Below are positions 23,046 to 43,738 of a stretch of 43,738 nt of DNA, in pieces. The translations under genes were made by a program, and so were the position numbers. The stretch is taken from assembly GCA_008369845.1 (NCBI GenBank), contig MRSU01010728.1, positions 1 to 43,738 on the forward strand, read 5' to 3'. Origin of the DNA: Trichomonas gallinae. Its lineage: Eukaryota. Within the stretch, counting starts at the first letter, position 1; the number at the start of each line of letters is the position of its first letter. Under the pieces are notes generated by a model that was not told the origin of the DNA, searched no databases, and saw only the letters and a list, made by a program, of their open reading frames with translations.

Positions 23046-24281
23046 ATGGATAGTTTGAGGAGGGGAAAAAGGAAACCTAATGGATGGTTTAACGAAGAAT
23101 ATTTGGGGCCTAGTGGCTCAGATTCTGATGATAAAGATGATTCAGACGAATACGTGCCAAAACAGAATCCACCAAATCCTAATTCACGCAAAAGACACTA
23201 TTCTGATGATGACGATGATGATGACTACTATTATGAAGATTATACTAAAGAAAAGAAGTCATATCGTGAAAGAGTTGCTGGTCCGATTCGAAAAACTTTA
23301 AGAACTGAAATTATCAGCTCAAGACAATGCTTAGCAAATAGAATATCATCTGATAGCCCAGAGGTAAACATTGGACCTGATGGTAATCCTTGCAGATTTA
23401 TTCCATTTTCTGAATTACAACCAAATCTCTTAAATATCGATAAAATTCTAAAAGAAGGCGAAACAGGTATTAATACTATGCTACCAGCTTATGATCCTGT
23501 CGCTCGTAACAAACTTCAATTTTTTCAACTCGACGATTCACCGACTATTTTCAAATTTTCTGAACTAGAAAGGATGTCCCTAGATGATTTAAAGTACGCA
23601 TTAGAGATAGTTGAAGAAGATATTGCATCAATTCCACATTTTCCTGAATACGCAAAAGATTTTGTCATTGTTCCACCATACAGCGAGCATATTAAGATGG
23701 CGGCTCCTATTCAAGCAGATATTCGCAATTTTGATTGGGAAGCTTTTGGAAAAATATGTCAATTCGATGTAATTGTTATGGATCCACCGTGGAACATTCA
23801 ACCTGCTCAGACTACTCGTGGTGTTGATCTTGGATATGAGCTTTTATCTGAGAGTGAAATCGCAGCCATGAAAATTCCGCTTATTCAGTCAAATGGTTAT
23901 TGTTTTATGTGGGTTGTTGCTTCTTTTCTGCCTGTTGGTGTTTCTATGCTTCAAGGTTGGGGATATCAAGTAATTGATTTTGTAAATTGGATCAAAACAT
24001 CTAAATATGGAAGATACAGGCCATCAAACGGTTACTTCCTTCAGCATGATAAAGAAACTTGTTTAGTTGGAGTCAAAGGTCATCCAATCGATGGAGAAGA
24101 TATTGATGTTTTTACAGACTTGATTATCGACGAAAGAGGTGCTAGACAGAGTCATAAGCCACCAACTTTATATGATATTATAGAAAGAATGTTCCCAGGA
24201 AGAACTTATTTAGAAATCTTTGCAAGAGCTCATAATGAAAGAGAAGGATGGGTTTCTCTTGGCTTAGAAGTTGCTCAATAA
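23046..24281 (+). CDS. AMT1: MT-A70 family N6-adenine methyltransferase, AMT1/MTA1-like (likely DNA 6mA writer)
   Basis: FDVIVMDPPW, TRGVDLGY, GYFLQHDKETCLVGVKG, RQSHKP, YLEIFAR. The RGV and GYFLQH segments fit ciliate MTA1/AMT1 better than METTL3. Confidence 0.8.
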   Translation: MDSLRRGKRKPNGWFNEEYLGPSGSDSDDKDDSDEYVPKQNPPNPNSRKRHYSDDDDDDDYYYEDYTKEKKSYRERVAGPIRKTLRTEIISSRQCLANRISSDSPEVNIGPDGNPCRFIPFSELQPNLLNIDKILKEGETGINTMLPAYDPVARNKLQFFQLDDSPTIFKFSELERMSLDDLKYALEIVEEDIASIPHFPEYAKDFVIVPPYSEHIKMAAPIQADIRNFDWEAFGKICQFDVIVMDPPWNIQPAQTTRGVDLGYELLSESEIAAMKIPLIQSNGYCFMWVVASFLPVGVSMLQGWGYQVIDFVNWIKTSKYGRYRPSNGYFLQHDKETCLVGVKGHPIDGEDIDVFTDLIIDERGARQSHKPPTLYDIIERMFPGRTYLEIFARAHNEREGWVSLGLEVAQ

Positions 24282-31179: not shown

Positions 31180-32462
31180 TTGTTTGATAAATTTGTGTGA
31201 AATTTTTTTATTGCGAAAAATAGCTTTATAAATAGTTATAAATTACTTCGATTAAAGTAGTTTCTGATCTCACAATTTGTTTCAAATTAATTTGTGAAGT
31301 TTCGTAGAAATTGAAAAACCTATTTAATTTATTTGATAGAATTTATCAATAAAATATGTTTGATTCACAGCATATATCATCAGTGTTAAATTGTGTAAAC
31401 AAAGCGTAAAATTTGTTAGCAGATGAAAATTTTAAATATTACTATATAATAGAATATACATCAATATGATAAAATGTAAAAATTGAGGCATTTTTCAAAA
31501 CTGTACTTTTTTACGCCAATGGAAATAGAATTAATTTCTTGTATGGATTATAATGCTGCATAAAAATTTTGAGAAGAAAAATTGTTATTGATTGAAACAT
31601 GTGTGTTAAATGCTTTTAAACAAATAATATTTAATTACTTTGCTTTTTTCAAGTCATCACAATTGTTATTTCATATTTCCTTTTAACTCCCCAATTTTCT
31701 ATATATACTCTATAAACATTATAAAAACAAAGTCCTGTAACAATATCTGCGTAGAATAGCTATCGTTTTACTTTTGTTTATATCGGCAAAAGTGCCAAAC
31801 TTTGAATACTTCGCAAAAGTTTCAACAAACAAAAAACGAAAAAACGTGCTCTTGACTAGAATGATCTTCAATTTAGATAACATTAAGTGATTTTAAAATA
31901 TTGCTTGCATTTAATATTTGAGTCAATGCGAATTTTGTTTCTCAAAAAAATTACGATGAATCGAGAGTCAATTAATGCATATGATGTACTAAGCACAATT
32001 TATCAATTTGATCTATATGAAAAAGGAAATGTTCGGTTTTGTCATGTAAAATGTCAAAAATGTATCTATGTATATTACTAATTAATGGAGAATGTAATTC
32101 AATTAAAAGCAAACACAGTATCATTTATGAATCAATTACATTACTCGTATGCTATGGTTTTCTAACTTCAATTTTGGAAATTGTATTGTTTTTTATATCG
32201 ATGTGTTTTTATCCTCAAACTGATCAATAAAATGGCTCTAGATTTTATATATTAGAATACCTAAGTGGCTATATCTTTCTCTCTATTATTATATGTCCTG
32301 TACGGAATGCTGAACGAAAAGTGACATGTTTACATGTCAATTTTGACATGTAAAATATCCAAAAAGTGGCAGAATTAATACAGGGGTGGAGTCTCAATTT
32401 TTTAAAAGTGACATTCAATGAAGATTTCATCTTTTTTTAGAAACTGCTAAGAAGGAGTGCCA

Positions 32463-32514
32463 CTTGTCTTCAGCAGAGTATCATGATACATCAAGACACT
32501 CTGCTGAAGACAAG
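32463..32514. repeat. Near-perfect inverted repeat (hairpin)
   Basis: Arm cttgtcttcagcagagt (32463-32479) is the exact reverse complement of 32498-32514, and pairing continues inward with two mismatches. Confidence 0.9.
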
Positions 32515-32814
32515 CTGTGTCAATTTCTGTTGATCTCGCTTGAAATCTAAATTCATATAAGTATAGATCTATCATAGTGGCATCAATATTTAAATGAAAT
32601 ACGAATCTATTCAATAGCAACGATCAAATTCCGAAAAAATATATGACCGCTCATCCTTTCAAATATCAAAAATTCATAAATTTAACTCATTATAGGCAAT
32701 ATAATTTAATGTGGAAATTCATTTAAAATTTGCAAAATGTGACAAAAATTATGATCGAGAACGATTATTTTTCTCAGAAAATCATTCGGATTTTTTTCCA
32801 TTTTTAGAAAAATT

Positions 32815-34714: not shown

Positions 34715-35362
34715 TTAAAAGAAGAGAGCTGATAATAGTGATAACCTACTCACATAAATACAGCTTTCATGAAATGTTGGACATTTGTAAACTTGTAGAG
34801 ATTGAATTTTTTGAACTGATTTTGAACAAAATGTTGAATTGTTGTAGTTAGGAAGTACATAAACAGTTCCATTAACGAGCTTTGTTAAGCAGTTTGGCGA
34901 CATTCCTGCAAAATAAATTGATTCAATTGTATTACAGGAAGTGAATAGATCTTGTCCTATCGATGTAACTGATGCTGGAATTCTGATCGATTTAATTGAG
35001 CTACCAACACCAAATGAAACTCCAAGAGATGATAAAGAAGAATCTGCATCAAAATAAATATTAGTAAGATTATAGCACCAATCAAAGGCATAGTTTAAGA
35101 ATGTTGTAACAAAGCGCGGTATTCTTGCTGTTTTAATTTGTGAAAATCGAAAAGCTTCATAACCAACAACAGTAACTGTATAAATTGTTCCACCATATGT
35201 AATTGTATTAGGAATTTCGAGATGAATATTTGTTTCGCTTTTGTTGATAAATGCATTTGAATTTAGAGAATTGTTAATGGCAATTGACTGATTGACTGTT
35301 CCAATAGTCGCTATGGTTCCTAATATAACATAATTAAACAGCCCAACTTGGACAATAGTCAT
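34715..35362 (-). CDS. Short BspA-like (TpLRR) surface protein with a canonical ATG and a hydrophobic C-tail
   Basis: LEIPNTITY..TIYTVTVVGYEAF and IPASVTSIGQDLFTSCNTIESI repeats. C-terminus KCPT...LSLLSALFF. ATG at 35360-35362. Confidence 0.8.
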   Translation of the reverse strand: MTIVQVGLFNYVILGTIATIGTVNQSIAINNSLNSNAFINKSETNIHLEIPNTITYGGTIYTVTVVGYEAFRFSQIKTARIPRFVTTFLNYAFDWCYNLTNIYFDADSSLSSLGVSFGVGSSIKSIRIPASVTSIGQDLFTSCNTIESIYFAGMSPNCLTKLVNGTVYVLPNYNNSTFCSKSVQKIQSLQVYKCPTFHESCIYVSRLSLLSALFF

Positions 35363-36014
35363 CAAAAACTATAAATGTTAGCAAAATCAAATTTCTATGA
35401 AAATTTTGAGATTAAAAGATTTTTAAAATATCATCTATTGCATGAAATCAGACAGATATAACCAAAATTAAAGCCAGCGGATTCAACCTTGTCAAAAATT
35501 AAAGAAGATTGATTTTCATAAGGTGTTAATCAATTAATTGAAAATTTTCTTTTTTGAAAATATAATAGCATCCTTTTTAGACATTGATATGTATTTTTTC
35601 TTCATATATATTAGATATTATATGCATAATAATTAGTTTCTAAAATAAATCATTAAAATTTGATTTTTCACTTTTAAACTATCTATCATGATCCCTTCCT
35701 ACAATATGATAGGGGTATATTTCTAATGTTATTGTTTTAAGTATGTATTTGTTTGCTCATCCAATATGATTTGAAATTGAAATAAAAATGGATAAATTTT
35801 TCACCCACTGAAGAAGAAAATCGAGCCAAAAATCATTTTATTTTTATAGAAAATATAATGTCATTGTTTACATTCGAAAGAAAAAAATCGAAAAATAAAA
35901 TTTGAATTATTTTTCTAGAAATGTGATTATATATAATAGTATTTGGAAGCAAAATAGGAAAAATTGTTTTGAAGAGTTTAACGCAATTTTTTTTAAAGAT
36001 TTAAAAATTTTATT

Positions 36015-36911
36015 ATGGTGAAACCAATCTCCACATCTTTCGAGATTATACCCAAAAACATATCACTGTACACATCAGACCCTGAATTTGCTAAATGCAG
36101 AACCAAAGATGAACTATGCAAAATTTTGGATTTTGCTCAGATCAAGCTGAATGACTTCACTCATCTTGTAAATAATCTCACTGCAGTTCATGACAAGAGT
36201 TCAATACTAAAGATATTGCGCAATGGTACTATTGATTACTCCGATCTTGATGATGAATATCATAAAATATCAAAATCATTAGAAATAATCTCGTCATCGC
36301 TTGACATCAAGTTAATATTAGACATATCGCATATAATCCAGCATAAAAGCAAAGAACAATCAATACATTCTCAGGATGATAACGAAAATTAAATTCGAAA
36401 ATTCAGATAAACATACTAACTAACATTGGTCTTAAATCAGAAAAGTTCAATGAAATTTACGATATATTGAATTGCGTGCTCTTAATAATGACACACAAAC
36501 AATAAAGTATGCTGTTCAAAATGATTTCATGTCAATACAAAACGATAATCTTGATAATATTTTAACTTTTGCTGCTTCAGAAAACAATTTAAATCTAGCG
36601 AAGATGCTTGTTGAAGCTAGTGCTGACTACACTTATAATCGAGCATGTGGACAAAACTGTTTGTTTTGGTTCACAAAAATTGGCAATTTTGATGATATAG
36701 TTTTATTTGCATCTTTGGGGACATAAATCCTCCAAATGAATTCGGGTTGACAACAATAATGCTTTGTTGCAAATATGATTACTATGATGTTTGCCAGTAT
36801 CTATTAACATTTCCTACAATAATTGATGCTGTTACACAATCCGGTCAAACAGCATTAAAACTTTGCAAATCAAATGGGATGAAAAGATTGATGGCAGACA
36901 ATATAAAATAA
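36015..36911 (+). pseudogene. Disrupted ankyrin-repeat protein gene
   Basis: A 125-aa ORF ends in TAA at 36390. Ankyrin segments follow in other frames (NILTFAASENNLNLAKMLVEASAD; then, after a shift at ~36720, DINPPNEFGLTTIMLCCKYDYYDVCQYLL...SGQTALKLC) ending at TAA 36909-36911. Confidence 0.75.
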
Positions 36912-36985: not shown

Positions 36986-37918
36986 CTACATGGGAATAAA
37001 AGGATGCAATAATAACATGTATGACATGAATGGAAAAGTCATTAAGTAGTTCTCTCGAATTGTCTGACATTTAGGATAAAAGCATTGCAATTGACGATCA
37101 ATACTAACTGCCCTATTCAAAAATTTGGAAGATATGTAATTTTGGCAAACAAATATTTGACAAGAGATATCTAAAGGTAAACTAATTTGATTTTGTATCA
37201 TAATTCCTGCATAGTAAAGTTCAATTAAATTTTTTGCATCAATGAATGCATATTGATTAATTTTTGAATTCCCAGTAATTTCTATCTTTTTAATTATAGA
37301 ACCTTGGCATAGTTTATACGGAATCTCCTCGACATAAGGAGGAATTAATAAATATTCACAGTGTGAATTGCTAAAGCAGAATTCTGCGATTTTAATGCAA
37401 CGAAAATCAATATCAATATGTTCAATAATCGGTAAAACTTCAACTAAAATTGTTCTGTCAATTGAATAAATGATTGAGTTATTTATTGCGAAATAATTTT
37501 TATTATTCTGTGAAATAATAATAGAAGTAAGCAATGTGTTATAACCAAATGGACTGTCGCCTAAATAAATAACGGAATCTGGAATCGTTATTGATGTAAA
37601 TCGACAAGAAGCAAAGCAAAGAGTTCCTAAATATTTCAATCCATGAGGTAATTCGATATTGGTGGATAGTTTTGATAAATCAAATGCTTGTGATGAAATA
37701 TTAACTAGGGAATTAGGTAATTTTACAGACTTGATAGTATCTTTCTGATAAAATGCACGAGTAAGTATTTCTGTAACAGGATATGTAATGGATTTGTATA
37801 CAACTTCCGAAGGAATTTCGAGATTTTCTGGGCATTCGCCATTACATTGTTCAACACCTGCTTTGCGTGCTGCTGTATCAACAATATATTTTAAATTTCC
37901 ATCAATAAAGCTTGTTAT
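36986..37918 (-). CDS. BspA-like (TpLRR) surface protein, 310-codon frame that begins at ATA (no AUG start)
   Basis: Manual translation extends the ORF call by 93 codons to ITSFIDGNLKYIVDTAARKAGV...LEIPSEVVYKSITYPVTEILTRAF, bounded by TAA at 37919-37921. The first in-frame Met is near codon 240. Confidence 0.75.
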   Translation of the reverse strand: MTSFIDGNLKYIVDTAARKAGVEQCNGECPENLEIPSEVVYKSITYPVTEILTRAFYQKDTIKSVKLPNSLVNISSQAFDLSKLSTNIELPHGLKYLGTLCFASCRFTSITIPDSVIYLGDSPFGYNTLLTSIIISQNNKNYFAINNSIIYSIDRTILVEVLPIIEHIDIDFRCIKIAEFCFSNSHCEYLLIPPYVEEIPYKLCQGSIIKKIEITGNSKINQYAFIDAKNLIELYYAGIMIQNQISLPLDISCQIFVCQNYISSKFLNRAVSIDRQLQCFYPKCQTIRENYLMTFPFMSYMLLLHPFIPM

Positions 37919-38094
37919 TTATATTACATTTTATCATTGATGAAAATTCCAATGAGGCATAAAACTGTCACATTTTAATTTAAACGTGCCAAATAATGCG
38001 CCTGTAAGGGTCCACAGACAGAGTTAATGAGGGGGTGACACCAAAACAATCCTGGGTAGCTACCCATGATGAAAATATTGATAAAATGCAACAC

Positions 38095-38438
38095 ATTTCC
38101 AAAGCAGCAAAATGCGATTTTGGTAAAACATCATATATCAATTGAGTTATTTATTGCAAAATAGTTTTTATTATTTGGCGAAATAGTAATATATGTAAGC
38201 ATTTCATTATAGCAAAATGGACGATCGCCTAAATAAACAACGGCTTCTGGAATCGTGACCGATGTAAATTTAAATATCGACAAGATGCAAAACAAAGGAA
38301 ACTTAAATATTTCAATACATTAGGCAATTCGACATTTGTGGGCAATTTTGATAACTCAAATGCTTGTGACTGAACACCTGCTTTTCATGCTGCTGTATCA
38401 ACAATATATTTGAAATGTCCATTAATAAAACTTGTAAT
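38095..38438 (-). pseudogene. Decayed third copy of the BspA-like tandem array
   Basis: Collinear with 36986-37918 but has a premature TGA in the AARK motif, a ~160-nt internal deletion, a 7-nt insertion near 38270 and a 3' truncation. It begins at ATT in the position equivalent to the ATA of its neighbours. Confidence 0.85.
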
Positions 38439-38541
38439 TTAAATTTTGTTTTATCATAAATGAAAATTCCATAAAATTTTTGTAAATATTTACAAATTAA
38501 AAGTGACAATAAAGTCAATATTGTTGATCATAAAAATTTAT

Positions 38542-39483
38542 TTAATCATCACAAATAGTTGCCATCCATATTGCACAGTATAAATTGGAATGTTGCATTA
38601 TAGGATTGAATTCTTCATCAATATATGTTTGACATTTTGGGCAGAAACATGGAATTTTATTATCTATTCTAACGTCACGATTTAATAAAGTCAGAGAGTC
38701 GTAATTTCGGCATACAAATATTTGAAAAGAATTCTCTTGATACATTTCGTATTCATTTTGGACTTCAACTCCTGCATAGCTAAGTCTACTTAAATTATAA
38801 GCATGATAAAATGCGTTTTGATCAATTATCGAATTACCTTCTATGTCTATCGATTTAATATATGATTCTTCACATAATTTGACCGGAATACTTTTAACAT
38901 ATTTAGGAATTGACAAATACTCGCACTTGCTAAAACTAAAACAAAATGCTGCAACTCTTATACATTTATGATAAATCTCGATTTTTTCAACATGAGGCAA
39001 AACTTCGATCAAAACAGTTCGATTCATCGAATAAATTATCGAATTTTCTATTGCGAAATAGTTTTTGTTATTCGGAGAAATATTGATAGTAGCAAGATTT
39101 CTGTTGTATCCAAATGGACAATCGCCTAAATATGTGACCGAATCTGGAATTGTCACAGATGTGAAACGACAAGAAGCAAAACTAAGAGTACCAATCCTTT
39201 TTAGACCACTAGGAAATATTGGAGTTGTTGGTATAAATGAAAGATCGAAAGCTCCATCAGAAATATTTACTAATGAATCTGGAAAAGTAACTGATTTAAT
39301 TCCAAAGCATTTATAAAATGCATGCTGATCTATTTCAGTAACTGGATATCGAACTGAATTATAAATAACATCAGATGGAATAATAAGATTTTCCGGACAA
39401 GCAGTGTTGCACGATTTGACGCTTGCTTTTCGTGCAGCTGTGTCAACTGTATAATTTAAATTTCCATCCGAATAACTTATTAT
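38542..39483 (-). CDS. BspA-like (TpLRR) surface protein, 313-codon frame that begins at ATA (no AUG start)
   Basis: Manual translation extends the ORF call by 109 codons to IISYSDGNLNYTVDTAARKASV..., bounded by TAA at 39484-39486. Inr-like TCAT lies ~10 nt upstream. The first in-frame Met is codon 153. Confidence 0.75.
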   Translation of the reverse strand: MISYSDGNLNYTVDTAARKASVKSCNTACPENLIIPSDVIYNSVRYPVTEIDQHAFYKCFGIKSVTFPDSLVNISDGAFDLSFIPTTPIFPSGLKRIGTLSFASCRFTSVTIPDSVTYLGDCPFGYNRNLATINISPNNKNYFAIENSIIYSMNRTVLIEVLPHVEKIEIYHKCIRVAAFCFSFSKCEYLSIPKYVKSIPVKLCEESYIKSIDIEGNSIIDQNAFYHAYNLSRLSYAGVEVQNEYEMYQENSFQIFVCRNYDSLTLLNRDVRIDNKIPCFCPKCQTYIDEEFNPIMQHSNLYCAIWMATICDD

Positions 39484-40189
39484 TTATCTGGATGAAATTC
39501 CACAATAAAGCGTTGAAAAAGTGCCACTTTTATGTACTGTAAATCATTCAATTATATGAATAACTTTCCGAAGTGCGATTTTTTTTTACTGCCAGACCTT
39601 ACTGCCATTTAGGTTGTTTTACTGCAGGCTTGGCATGTTTACTTTCAAAATCTAACTTTTTGATAAATTTCATTAAATTAAAAATAATTTAATGAACAAG
39701 AAATATATACATTTCCATACATTTTAAGGTAGAAAATGCACAGAAATTGAAATTTGCTTATTTTCATTTCTGAAATTTTCAATTTTGAATTTCGTTGATT
39801 TCTTAGTGATTTCATTTTAAAACATATAATATAAATCATTTATTGGTTCTATATATATATACGCTTGTAGAATTTTCAAGATTTTTGCGCTTAATATTAC
39901 CTGTGATAGAAACTTTTATAATGAGGGAAAACATTAAATGCCTTGTTTTTTAAGCTATGAAATCAATAAAATATTATGTATGCAATGTAAACATGTGTTT
40001 AATATAGATTAGAACGAATTCTAAATGACCGCTGATGATACGAAAACGTCACTTTTCTTATTTTAACCTTAAATTTATAGTTCAACAGGCTTCAAAATTT
40101 TGATGATTTTGGAATATTTTAGCAGTAATAAGCTTATATTCGAAATTTCAGCAGAAGGCGGATAAAATCATTGTCACTTTTTCGATAGA

Positions 40190-41329
40190 ATGCAGGTTGC
40201 ACGTCCAACAATTAAACCAGTACCTCAACAAGTAAATCGTCCGCGTTTTCAGGCAACTACTCCTCGTCCACAAGTTAAGCATACGAACACATTTAGACCA
40301 ATGTCTCGCTCACCTCCTCCCTTCGAATCACCGTCATCGGTGCAACACAATAAAAAACTCGAAGAAATATTCGGCCCACAGGCACAGCTCCAACAATCAA
40401 CGAATGTCAATTTATTATCGCGCGGAATTTCATTATTATCAATCACACAACTCAGAGATTTGCTTCGAGACTACTCTCTTCCCACGGGAGGCAACAAAAA
40501 TGTTCTTGTCAATCGCTTAATTATATTTTTAGAAACTTTCGGACAAAATCAACAAAATATTTTGACTCAATTCTCATCGAAACTTAAAAGGCTTCTATCG
40601 ATCGAGGTTGATGAGGCAAACGCTTCATCACCACAAAGTGAAGAGACTTCACCACTACCAGCACCGCCAGTATCTCAAAATTTACCGGAAGAAGTTACAG
40701 AAAAGTTAATAGCTACATCACCATCGCCTCTCTATGAGCCAACAGAACTCCCTCCTTCACTTGGACCGATCCTTGTCCAACCAGATAATATGAAAATGTT
40801 ATATCCTTTCAGTTTATCATCTCAAGAGTTCATACCAATTCTCCAGTTTACACCAAGCTTTTCCCAAGTATTACTTTCTCGAGTTGTCGTTCAAATCAAT
40901 GGCACATTTATAAATCTTCGCGGTCCTTCCTTCTTTACCGATCTAAAGGACTACGCAGGCCGTCAATGCACACTCCAAGTTGTGTCTGTTGAGCCAGCAA
41001 GTCCGGTTGTTGCTGTTGTCAGATGGGTAAAACAAGTACCAATTCAACACATGATAAATCATATTGCGATGAAAGAACCAGTGAAGAAAGTTCCATTGTC
41101 ACCAAACCAGACAATAAACGGAGTCTGCCCGCTGACACACAAAATAATAGCAAGGCCTGCAAGAGGAGTAAACTGCATGCATCCTGAATGCTTCGACATG
41201 TCCGGCTTTATTTGCCACGCGATGAAGACTAACTCTTGGCAGTGCCCTGTTTGCAGGAAGCCAGTCCCAATCGATGAGCTGAGGATTGACCCATACTACT
41301 TTGCTATTGCTAGCGGATCTGTTGTTTGA
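40190..41329 (+). CDS. SIZ/PIAS-type SUMO E3 ligase (SAP plus MIZ/SP-RING)
   Basis: SAP domain LSITQLRDLLRDYSLPTGGNKNVLVNRL and SP-RING CPLT...PARGVNCMHPECFD...WQCPVC. GTCACTTT at 40173-40180. Confidence 0.9.
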   Translation: MQVARPTIKPVPQQVNRPRFQATTPRPQVKHTNTFRPMSRSPPPFESPSSVQHNKKLEEIFGPQAQLQQSTNVNLLSRGISLLSITQLRDLLRDYSLPTGGNKNVLVNRLIIFLETFGQNQQNILTQFSSKLKRLLSIEVDEANASSPQSEETSPLPAPPVSQNLPEEVTEKLIATSPSPLYEPTELPPSLGPILVQPDNMKMLYPFSLSSQEFIPILQFTPSFSQVLLSRVVVQINGTFINLRGPSFFTDLKDYAGRQCTLQVVSVEPASPVVAVVRWVKQVPIQHMINHIAMKEPVKKVPLSPNQTINGVCPLTHKIIARPARGVNCMHPECFDMSGFICHAMKTNSWQCPVCRKPVPIDELRIDPYYFAIASGSVV

Positions 41330-41396
41330 GATTGTTTGTTATTTTTTATTCATTTAATAAAGTTTATTTGTTTTGTTTTAAAACCGAAAATTAAGT

Positions 41397-42452
41397 CTAT
41401 TCTGAATCTAGTCCAGTGTATAGACTAAGTATATACGAATTTGATCCGTGAGAATTTACGACGTTGTTGCATGTAACTGCTGCATATTTAGTGTTCAACT
41501 TTATTTCAGCATAACAATCGAATGAAGATAAATGTGGAAGAAGGTTCATTTCACTTGTCGTCACAATGAAACATGTTGTGAAGGTTCCTCCTTCGTATAA
41601 ATAATATTGAGAATTATCAATATTACAGTGATTGATGTAGAAATTTCCATAGGTATTTAAAGCAAATGGTATTCCTTTTCCATATGGACCTTGTATCGAA
41701 CAATTTTTAAGAATAACATCTGAATAATAACCTCCAAATATTATTCCATAACTAGATGTTTCTTGACTATTTTTTATTATGTTACACGCAACATTCTCAA
41801 AATTACCATAATGACTATAATAATGATATAAACAAGCATAATTTTTTGCAATATTTCCTTCAAATGTACAATATTTATTCAAAGCTGTGCCTTTTGGTCT
41901 ATTATAATAGAATCCTGAATAATAATTAGCAGAATTCCTAGAAATATTCGATGAATGCATCTCAATATTGCCGCGATATGAATAAATCAAGCCATTGTAC
42001 TTTTCTTGATTACAATTTGTTATACATGAATCAATTATATGACTTTTATAATTAGTATTTTCTATATTTAACGAAACAAATGAATAAAAACCAAGATTAT
42101 TTGATGTAATAATATTATTAAACGAACAAAACCTATGTTGGATGATATTACTCTGGCAATTAAAATATATAGCTCCGCCATTGTTGCTTCTTGAACATTT
42201 AGTAAAAAAGCAGCTGGAATGGAGAAATTTAAAATTATCAGATGTTATTATAATAGAACCAGATGTTTGGTCATGAAATATGCCTAGATAAACATATATT
42301 TCATTCTGGTTTGTAGGAATATTACAATTGTCACAAACATCGACAAATTTACTACCTTTATATGAGTCACAGTAGAATTCTTTCCAAACATCTAAAGGAG
42401 CTTGATCTTTATGATAATATAAAATAAGTTGGGAAAGTAAATCATCATTGGA
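41397..42452 (-). CDS. Cys/Asn/Tyr-rich beta-helix-like (GGAIY, Pmp-like) putative surface protein, copy A, 351-codon frame with no AUG start
   Basis: The frame stays open 154 codons upstream of the ORF call (…ILYYHKDQAPLDVWKEFYCDSYKG…NGGAIYFNC…). It is preceded in frame by ATG TAA at 42458-42453. Confidence 0.7.
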   Translation of the reverse strand, partial: SNDDLLSQLILYYHKDQAPLDVWKEFYCDSYKGSKFVDVCDNCNIPTNQNEIYVYLGIFHDQTSGSIIITSDNFKFLHSSCFFTKCSRSNNGGAIYFNCQSNIIQHRFCSFNNIITSNNLGFYSFVSLNIENTNYKSHIIDSCITNCNQEKYNGLIYSYRGNIEMHSSNISRNSANYYSGFYYNRPKGTALNKYCTFEGNIAKNYACLYHYYSHYGNFENVACNIIKNSQETSSYGIIFGGYYSDVILKNCSIQGPYGKGIPFALNTYGNFYINHCNIDNSQYYLYEGGTFTTCFIVTTSEMNLLPHLSSFDCYAEIKLNTKYAAVTCNNVVNSHGSNSYILSLYTGLDSE

Positions 42453-42468
42453 TTACATTAAAAATAAT

Positions 42469-42476
42469 GTCACTTT
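42469..42476 (-). promoter_or_regulatory. AAAGTGAC motif upstream of copy A, with an identical block at 43569-43576 upstream of copy B
   Basis: aaaagtgacattattttta is conserved ahead of both paralogs. Confidence 0.6.
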
Positions 42477-42501
42477 TATTATATGATATTGAATTATTTT
42501 A

Positions 42502-43527
42502 TTATTCAACATATGCAATTGTATTCAGACTATTTATATATAAATTTGTTCCTTTAACAGGAACGTCATTGTTGCATGAATAAATGTTTTTGTTATAAAT
42601 GTTTATCAATCTTTTTTCTGCATAACATTCAAATGAAGATAAATGTGGAAGAAGATTCATTTCGTTTGTTGTCACAATGAAACATGTTGTGAATGTTCCT
42701 GCGTTTAAATAATGTTGCATGCTATCAACATTGCAATGAGAAATAAAGAAATTGCCATAATTTAAAGCAAACGGACTTCCAGATCCATATGGACCCAAAA
42801 TAGAGCAATTTTTAAGTATAATATCGGATGAATCAGCAAATATTATTCCATAACTAGATGTTTCTTGACTATTTTTTATGATATTGCATGCAGAATTTTC
42901 AAAATTTCCAAAACCACTATTATAATGATATAAACATGCATAATTTTTTGCAATATTTCTTTCATATGTACAATATTTATTTAATGCTGTGCCTTTTGGA
43001 TAATAATAATAGAATCCTGAATAACAACTAGCAGAATTCCTAGAAATATTCGATGAATGCATCTCAATATTTCCTCGAATTGAATAAATCAACCCATTGT
43101 AATTTTCTTGATTACAATTTGTTATACATGAATCAATTATATGACTTTTACAGTTAGCATTATCTATTTTTAGATGAATATATGAATGAAACCCTTGACC
43201 GTTCGAAATTATTATATTATTCGAACAAAATCGGTGTTGAATTATAGAACTCTGGCATTCAAAATATATGGCTCCTCCATTTCCAGATCTGGAGCATTTT
43301 GTGAAAAAACAACTGGAATGGAGAAATTTATAATTATTTGAACTAATAGAAATAGAACCAGAAGATTGGTCATGAAATATGCCTAGATAAACATATATTT
43401 CATTCTGGTTTGTAGGAATATTGCAATTGTCACAATCATCGACAAATTTACACCCTTTATATGAGTCACAGTAGAATTCTTTCCAAACATCTAAAGGAGC
43501 TCGATCTTTGTGACTATATAGAATAAA
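42502..43527 (-). CDS. Cys/Asn/Tyr-rich beta-helix-like (GGAIY, Pmp-like) putative surface protein, copy B, 341-codon frame with no AUG start
   Basis: The frame stays open 145 codons upstream of the ORF call (FILYSHKDRAPLDVWKEFYCDSYKG…NGGAIYFEC…). An in-frame ATG at 43555-43557 is cut off by TAA at 43528-43530. Confidence 0.7.
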   Translation of the reverse strand, partial: FILYSHKDRAPLDVWKEFYCDSYKGCKFVDDCDNCNIPTNQNEIYVYLGIFHDQSSGSISISSNNYKFLHSSCFFTKCSRSGNGGAIYFECQSSIIQHRFCSNNIIISNGQGFHSYIHLKIDNANCKSHIIDSCITNCNQENYNGLIYSIRGNIEMHSSNISRNSASCYSGFYYYYPKGTALNKYCTYERNIAKNYACLYHYNSGFGNFENSACNIIKNSQETSSYGIIFADSSDIILKNCSILGPYGSGSPFALNYGNFFISHCNVDSMQHYLNAGTFTTCFIVTTNEMNLLPHLSSFECYAEKRLINIYNKNIYSCNNDVPVKGTNLYINSLNTIAYVE

Positions 43528-43738
43528 TTAGATATAGGAAATACTATAAAATGACATTTAAAAATAATGTCACTTTTGTATTTTCAATTTCAGAAGTGAT
43601 TTTTTGCGAATTTCGAACTAATTTTAAGGGTGCACCTATTTTGGTTCAAAACAACTATAAAATCGCATTTTTAGAAATAATCTCTATTGTGTCTGATGTT
43701 ATTATTTAGCTTGAAACTTCACTCAAAATCCGTATTTT

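Follow-up and report, generated by a model that had tools for sequence, protein, structure and literature searches.

Candidate AUA and AUU starts in tandem BspA-like and beta-helix genes of Trichomonas gallinae whose AUG-less N-termini evolved under purifying selection

Introduction

In eukaryotes, initiation at codons other than AUG is known mostly from single genes or from N-terminal extensions, with CUG, GUG or ACG as the start; genes for which a non-AUG start is obligate include EIF4G2 (DAP5), which starts at GUG, and TEAD1, which starts at AUU. Why trichomonad genomes hold so many broken-looking members of huge families has been an open question since 2007; earlier work put forward readthrough and set alternative starts aside after a single test. 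Here we analyse a stretch of 43,738 nucleotides from Trichomonas gallinae (contig MRSU01010728.1 of assembly GCA_008369845.1; hereafter the window), which carries four long open frames from two unrelated families, each with its first in-frame AUG far inside the frame. Two of them, B1 and B2, are BspA-like, and the other two, P1 and P2, encode beta-helix (Pmp-like) proteins. We find that the AUG-less N-termini of both pairs evolved under purifying selection, and we tentatively propose AUA and AUU as their start codons.

Results

The four frames (Table 1) were found again where a preliminary description of the sequence had placed them, with the same first methionine codons and with an in-frame TAA closing each of them upstream. 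In 13 of the 17 stop-free frames of at least 190 codons in the window, the first in-frame methionine comes within 22 codons, and the exceptions are B1, B2, P1 and P2. The earlier count of 57 identical residues among 93 at the N-termini of the BspA pair was reproduced. Gapless alignment of the paralogues did not extend to P1 and P2, whose alignment upstream of the first AUG has one gap column. Overlooked until now were a third, decayed BspA copy (B3) and in-frame ATGs that stand 2-14 codons above three of the four frames, each interrupted by stops.

Table 1 Features of the cluster and its surroundings, in window positions
Feature	Position	Strand	Description
B1, BspA-like gene 1	36986..37918	-	310 codons; first codon ATA (37916-37918), the proposed start; first Met at codon 240
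B2, BspA-like gene 2	38542..39483	-	313 codons; first codons ATA ATA (39478-39483); first Met at codon 153
P1, beta-helix (Pmp-like) gene 1	41397..42452	-	351 codons; ATT at 42423-42425; first Met at codon 165
P2, beta-helix (Pmp-like) gene 2	42502..43527	-	341 codons; ATT at 43522-43524; first Met at codon 156
B3, decayed third BspA copy	38140..38438	-	Stop at codon 18, internal deletion, 8-nt insertion, 3' half absent
B3 5' end	38436-38438	-	ATT; AUG-less layout like that of B1
Distant BspA-like gene with ordinary ATG (comparator)	34715..35362	-	Met aligns with first ATA of B1 and B2
B1 promoter-like region	37940..37974	-	M2-like motif 56 nt and TCAT 25 nt upstream of ATA
B2 promoter-like region	39492..39530	-	M2-like motif 47 nt and TCAT 12 nt upstream of ATA
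P1 promoter-like region	42445..42476	-	AAAGTGAC 51 nt upstream of ATT
P2 promoter-like region	43528..43576	-	AAAGTGAC 52 nt and initiator TCATT 30 nt upstream of ATT
B1 in-frame ATG	37960	-	Stops after 8 codons
B1 short out-of-frame AUG frames	37902..37937	-	11 codons from 37937; start-stop at 37929; 3 codons from 37902
P1 in-frame ATG	42458	-	TAA immediately after
P1 out-of-frame ATGs	42448, 42445	-	Open an 18-codon hydrophobic frame
P2 in-frame ATG	43557	-	Just upstream of the initiator; stops after 9 codons
Broken gene	35997-36910	+	131-codon frame without Pfam match, then ankyrin-like pieces in other frames (by eye)

We estimated the ratio of nonsynonymous to synonymous substitution rates (dN/dS) by the Nei-Gojobori method, with bootstrap ranges given in brackets. 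Upstream of the first AUG, the ratio was 0.185 (0.06-0.32) for B1 and B2, at a synonymous divergence (dS) of 1.4, and 0.193 (0.10-0.34) for P1 and P2, at a dS of 0.56; the downstream parts gave 0.25 and 0.32, respectively. The AUG-less N-termini of both pairs evolved under purifying selection, as the preliminary description had expected: a ratio of about 0.19 in both is far from 1. When we simulated neutral evolution at half the synonymous divergence of the pairs, the whole frame stayed open in 0 of 400 replicates per gene and the part upstream of the first AUG in 0-1 of 400. With the divergence lowered to 0.02 substitutions per site, 107-168 replicates out of 400 were still open, so any single gene could have lost its function very recently. 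Contigs of a DNA run, X1, cover the window in pieces and B2 hardly at all; in their comparison with B1, 12 of 27 changed codons were silent, against 19% silent sites (p = 0.003; based on 40 of 218 difference rows). The selection upstream of the first AUG indicates that the AUG-less halves were probably translated through most of their history. Because the N-termini are selected and also needed for the fold (see below), annotation based on AUG would truncate B1, B2, P1 and P2, and the earlier warning to that effect was borne out.

B1 and B2 belong to the BspA family by their matches to the Pfam domain LRR_5, which score 82.6 and 79.7 bits against a cut-off of 27.7 (E = 2.9e-23 over residues 49-143 in B1; E = 2.2e-22 in B2). 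The BspA repeats occupy residues 49-153, at or before the first methionine. The highest 19-residue hydropathy is 1.3 in B1 and 1.1 in B2, with no segment of transmembrane (TM) strength; many BspA proteins of T. vaginalis also lack a TM segment (PMC2843621).

P1 and P2 gave no Pfam match. A model built with 38 sequences predicts a right-handed beta-helix (mean pLDDT 85), with Met165 in the middle of the solenoid. Residues of about 30-300 of the model match beta-helices in known structures; 7akv_G ranks first (Z = 23.3, rmsd 2.5, 246 aligned), and many beta-helix lyases and tailspikes come after it. Foldseek returned no match at E 0.001. The predicted fold is a right-handed parallel beta-helix that forms one continuous beta-solenoid. 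A profile search found 1114 relatives at E 0.001. Relatives P0034-P0179 belong to this large parabasalid beta-helix family with an N-terminal HxDxxPxDxW motif and a C-terminal LxHLS motif; some members of the family, 1600-2200 residues long, have 5-7 domains in tandem. The nearest Atlas clusters are likewise parabasalid beta-helix proteins, which is a lead only, as the recognition value lies under the threshold of the tool; all 25 clusters that were looked up (24 beta-helix, 1 BspA) hold Logan or ENA proteins without names.

Pmp proteins have been defined by multiple repeats of both GGA(I/L/V) and FxxN and by a C-terminal TM segment, and the illustrated trichomonad members carry an ATPITK motif (PMC6701047). 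P1 and P2 have one GGAI each and four and two FxxN motifs; their highest hydropathy is 0.9 and 1.0, the C-terminal 19 residues score -0.5 and 0.1, and no ATPITK motif was seen in the translations. With a single GGAI and no TM-strength segment, they are Pmp-like but fall outside that definition. Of the labels 'Pmp-like' and 'surface antigen' used in the preliminary description, what stands is the family resemblance; no repeated GGA motif and no TM-strength segment was seen, and a surface location of the BspA and beta-helix proteins would follow from family membership only. P1 and P2 are 82% identical overall, with identical runs of 57, 48, 48, 43 and 42 nt (41397-43527), and their silent differences are clumped (permutation p = 0.007; longest-run p = 0.15). 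These runs and the clumping suggest gene conversion tracts.

In both families, a near-cognate codon stands at a position that is conserved between paralogues. Directly after the closing TAA come ATA in B1, ATA in B2 and ATT in B3, aligned to the methionine of the comparator BspA gene. P1 and P2 have a single near-cognate codon from the closing TAA to a conserved histidine, an ATT that stands four codons before that histidine and at an identical position in both genes. Among their relatives, for which the comparison is with protein only, the called start of P0037 aligns exactly to this ATT and that of P0001 one codon later. Reassignment of AUA to methionine was considered and rejected: 15 ATA codons in the transporter gene of the window align with Ile (8), Phe (3), Val (3) and Leu (1), and none with Met. 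This transporter is 71% identical to its best relative in T. vaginalis G3 and 96% identical to a Logan protein, which marks the source as a trichomonad other than T. vaginalis G3.

The in-frame ATGs above B1, P1 and P2 are cut off from their frames by three stops in B1 and by one in P1 and P2. In both P1 and P2, this ATG lies 15 codons before the conserved histidine, with a single TAA in a different place in each. B2 has no ATG in any frame within 60 nt before its frame.

Promoter-like motifs stand above the proposed codons, as judged for the initiator (Inr) by a published consensus (PMC4450334, PMC13515687). M2-like motifs were found 47-56 nt above the proposed codon in all four genes, and TCAT or TCATT 12-37 nt upstream in B1, B2, B3 and P2. 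The earlier statement that promoter elements are retained applies best to P1 and P2, which alone have the exact AAAGTGAC; B1 and B2 have only variants, and P1 has no clean Inr. M2 has been described as non-functional (PMC4223856), and trichomonad 5' untranslated regions are short (PMC7370421, PMC4082486).

The P2 promoter block (43550-43576, minus strand) contains a 7-bp inverted repeat with a 7-nt spacer, overlapping M2, the upstream ATG and the Inr, and this repeat is partly kept in the P1 block (42450-42476, minus strand). At 32300-32560 lies a high-copy element, over which X1 contigs sum to a mean depth of 2307 in the bin, against 0-186 elsewhere; it has a 25-bp inverted repeat (32463-32514) and two AAAGTGAC motifs. 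It is possibly a repeat like a miniature inverted-repeat transposable element, and M2 motifs may have been spread by it. Rfam gave no match in the window.

The decayed copy B3 bears on when the AUG was lost. B1 and B3 are 87% identical and align without a gap over 99 nt of the 5' end, including 33 nt above the frame, and neither has an in-frame AUG after the stops. In a branch test on 94 codons with B2 as outgroup (11 of 46 changes unassigned), the B1 branch since the split from B3 has a dN/dS of about 0.21, from 7 silent and 5 replacement changes (p = 0.008 for departure from neutrality), and the B3 branch has one of 0.55, from 8 silent and 15 replacement changes (p = 0.13). The simplest history would be an AUG-less ancestor of B1 and B3, followed by continued selection on B1.

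An X1 contig that matches the 5' part of B3 runs on, at the joint 37846/38367, into B1-like sequence beyond the B3 deletion, which suggests that an undeleted relative of B3 is present in that run. The interval between B3 and the B1 promoter (37960-38140) is richer in G+C and reaches an X1 depth of 325 at 38046, which suggests a repeated element; B3 may have been truncated by it.

We then compared the starts called in public homologues, using a 39-member clade around P1 and P2 (FastTree, proteins of at least 250 residues, clades read by eye). The called starts are scattered. Fourteen lie within 12 residues before the conserved histidine, at no single position; 16 lie inside the domain, and all 16 of these proteins are complete at the C-terminal motif; and nine lie far upstream, with no methionine in the 12 residues before the histidine in eight of the nine. 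The C-terminal motif is absent in 3 of the 39. Because ATG, GTG or TTG occurs in 46% of 12-codon intergenic stretches, 14 of 39 is at chance level (p = 0.2). In a distant clade, 30 of 34 members have a methionine within 21 residues of the conserved tryptophan. Called starts fall after this tryptophan in 13 of 39 members of the near clade and in 1 of 34 of the far clade (p = 0.0009), a comparison that is confounded, since distant proteins need near full length to enter the top 150, the tree took proteins of at least 250 residues, the clades were read by eye and Logan proteins are set against partly ENA ones. For the BspA relatives P0005 (56% identical) and P0033, the called start likewise lies near residue 60. 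When metagenome contigs were scanned for homologue DNA, 95 pattern matches came up, none of which was confirmed.

Discussion

The pattern most likely has a systematic cause and is not the sum of four accidental lesions. Our favoured reading, to which we give slightly less than an even chance, is that the four frames are transcribed from their own promoter-like motifs and translated from AUA or AUU at the position of the homologues' start methionine. A short capped mRNA would begin at or near the Inr-like site, the initiator tRNA would pair with AUA (B1 and B2) or AUU (P1 and P2) near the 5' end of the mRNA, and the low-level product would be a full-length BspA repeat protein or beta-helix protein. 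On large, probably host-exposed families, the weak start would then serve as a built-in throttle, helped in three of the four genes by short upstream AUG frames. Initiation at AUA or AUU fits all five 5' ends by one rule, and of the options put forward in the preliminary description, non-AUG initiation is the one that gains positional support, from the AUA or AUU at the homologues' methionine. A wider proposal is that a whole class of expanded host-exposed families in a Trichomonas lineage uses AUA or AUU starts, with weak initiation as a family-wide throttle, and that many apparent pseudogenes and truncated models of trichomonad genomes are full-length translated genes; this we consider possible but rather doubtful.

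Several observations weigh against initiation at AUA or AUU. P1 and P2 have a pyrimidine at -3, where 11 of 16 ordinary starts have a purine, and out-of-frame or start-stop AUGs stand above the proposed codon in B1 and P1. AUA and AUU are the commonest remnants of a decayed ATG, and isoleucine codons are frequent in AT-rich hydrophobic stretches. There are two decayed genes near the cluster in the window, and the difference between the B1 and B3 branch ratios is not significant (p = 0.28). The homologue starts come from an automatic caller, in protein sequences only, so that an 'M' may be GTG or TTG; and transporter relatives have a methionine at a common position in 28 of 36 cases (by eye), so callers shift some normal starts. 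T. vaginalis appears not to use alternative start codons, according to one report, whose single case has, by its figure labels, an ATG, two stops and a 1029-bp putative open reading frame, a layout like that of B1, P1 and P2 (PMC4223856); and pseudogenes are abundant in this species (PMC2843621). Beyond that negative test, searches of the literature open without subscription listed no report of non-AUG initiation in trichomonads.

An unlikely, although weighty, alternative is that the genes are dead or dying, through a recent loss of the start or an early stop or with bodies kept open by gene conversion, and perhaps still transcribed. Pairwise dN/dS averages the whole history, and 27-56% of neutral replicates were open at 0.01-0.02 substitutions per site. 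The decayed BspA copy and the ankyrin-like remnant within the cluster are in keeping with gene death, the clumped silent differences between P1 and P2 are what conversion would give, and run X1 has several related copies, with up to six contigs at a site. T. vaginalis has 98 BspA pseudogenes and eight BspA models without methionine (PMC2843621); in the same species, pseudogenes that bear Inr and M2 are transcribed, and the single test for alternative starts was negative (PMC4223856). However, under an assumed AT-biased mutation model, about 5% of dying genes would lose their start before suffering any other lesion, and four independent cases, with lesions at the 5' end only, would have a probability of about 6e-6. 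B1 was still selected after splitting from B3, which has the same AUG-less end; conversion would have to reach the first codons yet always spare the start; and public relatives lose the N-terminus rather than the C-terminus by 16 to 3, a bias to which the caller contributes. Recoding from an upstream AUG, by readthrough, frameshifting, reinitiation or RNA editing of the start or stop, seems to us improbable. It would make use of the upstream in-frame ATGs, which come 6-11 nt after an M2-like motif, a spacing like that in an ordinary gene at 23046, where 11 nt separate M2 from the ATG, and their shared distance from the histidine in P1 and P2, with one TAA each, would suit it, as would the hydrophobic frame opened by the out-of-frame AUG of P1. 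Nevertheless, B1 would have three stops to pass, B2 has no upstream ATG to start from and P2 has its ATG above the Inr. Within each pair the leader peptides differ, without conservation, the required frameshifts are opposite in the two families, and readthrough or frameshifting, an option of the preliminary description, has no signature common to all four genes. We know of no mRNA editing in trichomonads. Readthrough in Trichomonas was proposed from long transcripts, where the evidence in the available part of the preprint is RNA only (bioRxiv 10.64898/2026.08.31.748405), and HA-tag tests reported elsewhere gave no readthrough product at three loci of T. vaginalis (PMC4223856).

The frames could instead be silent cassettes, expressed only after recombination into a site that gives them a promoter and a start, a strategy known from Pneumocystis MSG and Borrelia vls. 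This explanation, which we judge quite improbable, predicts intact bodies with missing starts, and the tandem arrangement, the identical runs of 42-57 nt and the clumped silent differences in P1 and P2 would agree with it. It would nonetheless require two expression sites for two unrelated families; family members share about 25-50% protein identity with no invariant junction block, the longest identical block in the BspA pair is 14 nt, and promoter-like motifs are retained upstream. More improbable still is a hidden upstream exon that supplies the ATG by cis- or trans-splicing, or an error of assembly at the 5' ends. All three BspA copies have AG at codons 2-3, and Trichomonas genes can carry short 5' introns, which vary more in T. 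stableri (PMC12316389). Known introns of type A or type B carry a fused branch point and 3' motif, ACTAACACAYAG or TCTAACH1-2AACAG (PMC12316389, PMC13548475). The 3' motif had no match in the window, and no relaxed match was found near the five 5' ends. Within 600 nt above the 5' ends of the four genes (for P2, up to the end of the window), no branch-point and AG motif was seen, and in P1 the stretch from the closing TAA to the conserved histidine is free of AG; splicing or the addition of a 5' leader, also listed in the preliminary description, is left without support from intron motifs. Assembly error was rejected, as neighbouring frames of up to 2226 codons are intact and the paralogues share the layout; across the 5' end of P1 (42364-42478), an X1 contig aligns gaplessly and differs at 12 places.

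These four genes offer a sharp test case, with one predicted start codon per gene. If AUA and AUU are used, start-codon choice in this lineage would be looser than assumed, the counts and N-termini of BspA and beta-helix genes would be mis-annotated and there would be a simple mechanism for low-level expression of antigen-like families. If they are not, a 5'-biased route to gene death would call for an explanation.

Like the obligate non-AUG genes, the four genes show coding selection above the first AUG, a candidate near-cognate start and truncation by AUG-only annotation. They would differ from the eukaryotic non-AUG genes described so far in that AUA or AUU would be the sole route to a folded protein, and in that they are tandem members of two unrelated, expanded parasite families. 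With the split genes, transcribed pseudogenes and readthrough genes of T. vaginalis, they share membership in big families, disrupted-looking models, retained Inr and M2 and, for some BspA genes, the absence of a methionine (PMC4223856; PMC2843621; bioRxiv 10.64898/2026.08.31.748405). In those cases, most lesions are stops inside the gene or frameshifts that part one annotated half from the other, whereas the present genes, from another Trichomonas-like species, have unbroken bodies and are irregular at the start only. Compared with trichomonad BspA (TpLRR) proteins, B1 and B2 have LRR_5 in common but are short forms without a TM segment and without an AUG. P1 and P2 resemble trichomonad and chlamydial Pmp proteins and parabasalid beta-helix proteins in their predicted right-handed beta-helix, one GGAI and two to four FxxN motifs, and they differ from Pmp proteins in having neither repeated GGA(I/L/V) nor a TM segment, with a single predicted helix of about 300 residues and an N-terminal HxDxxPxDxW motif.

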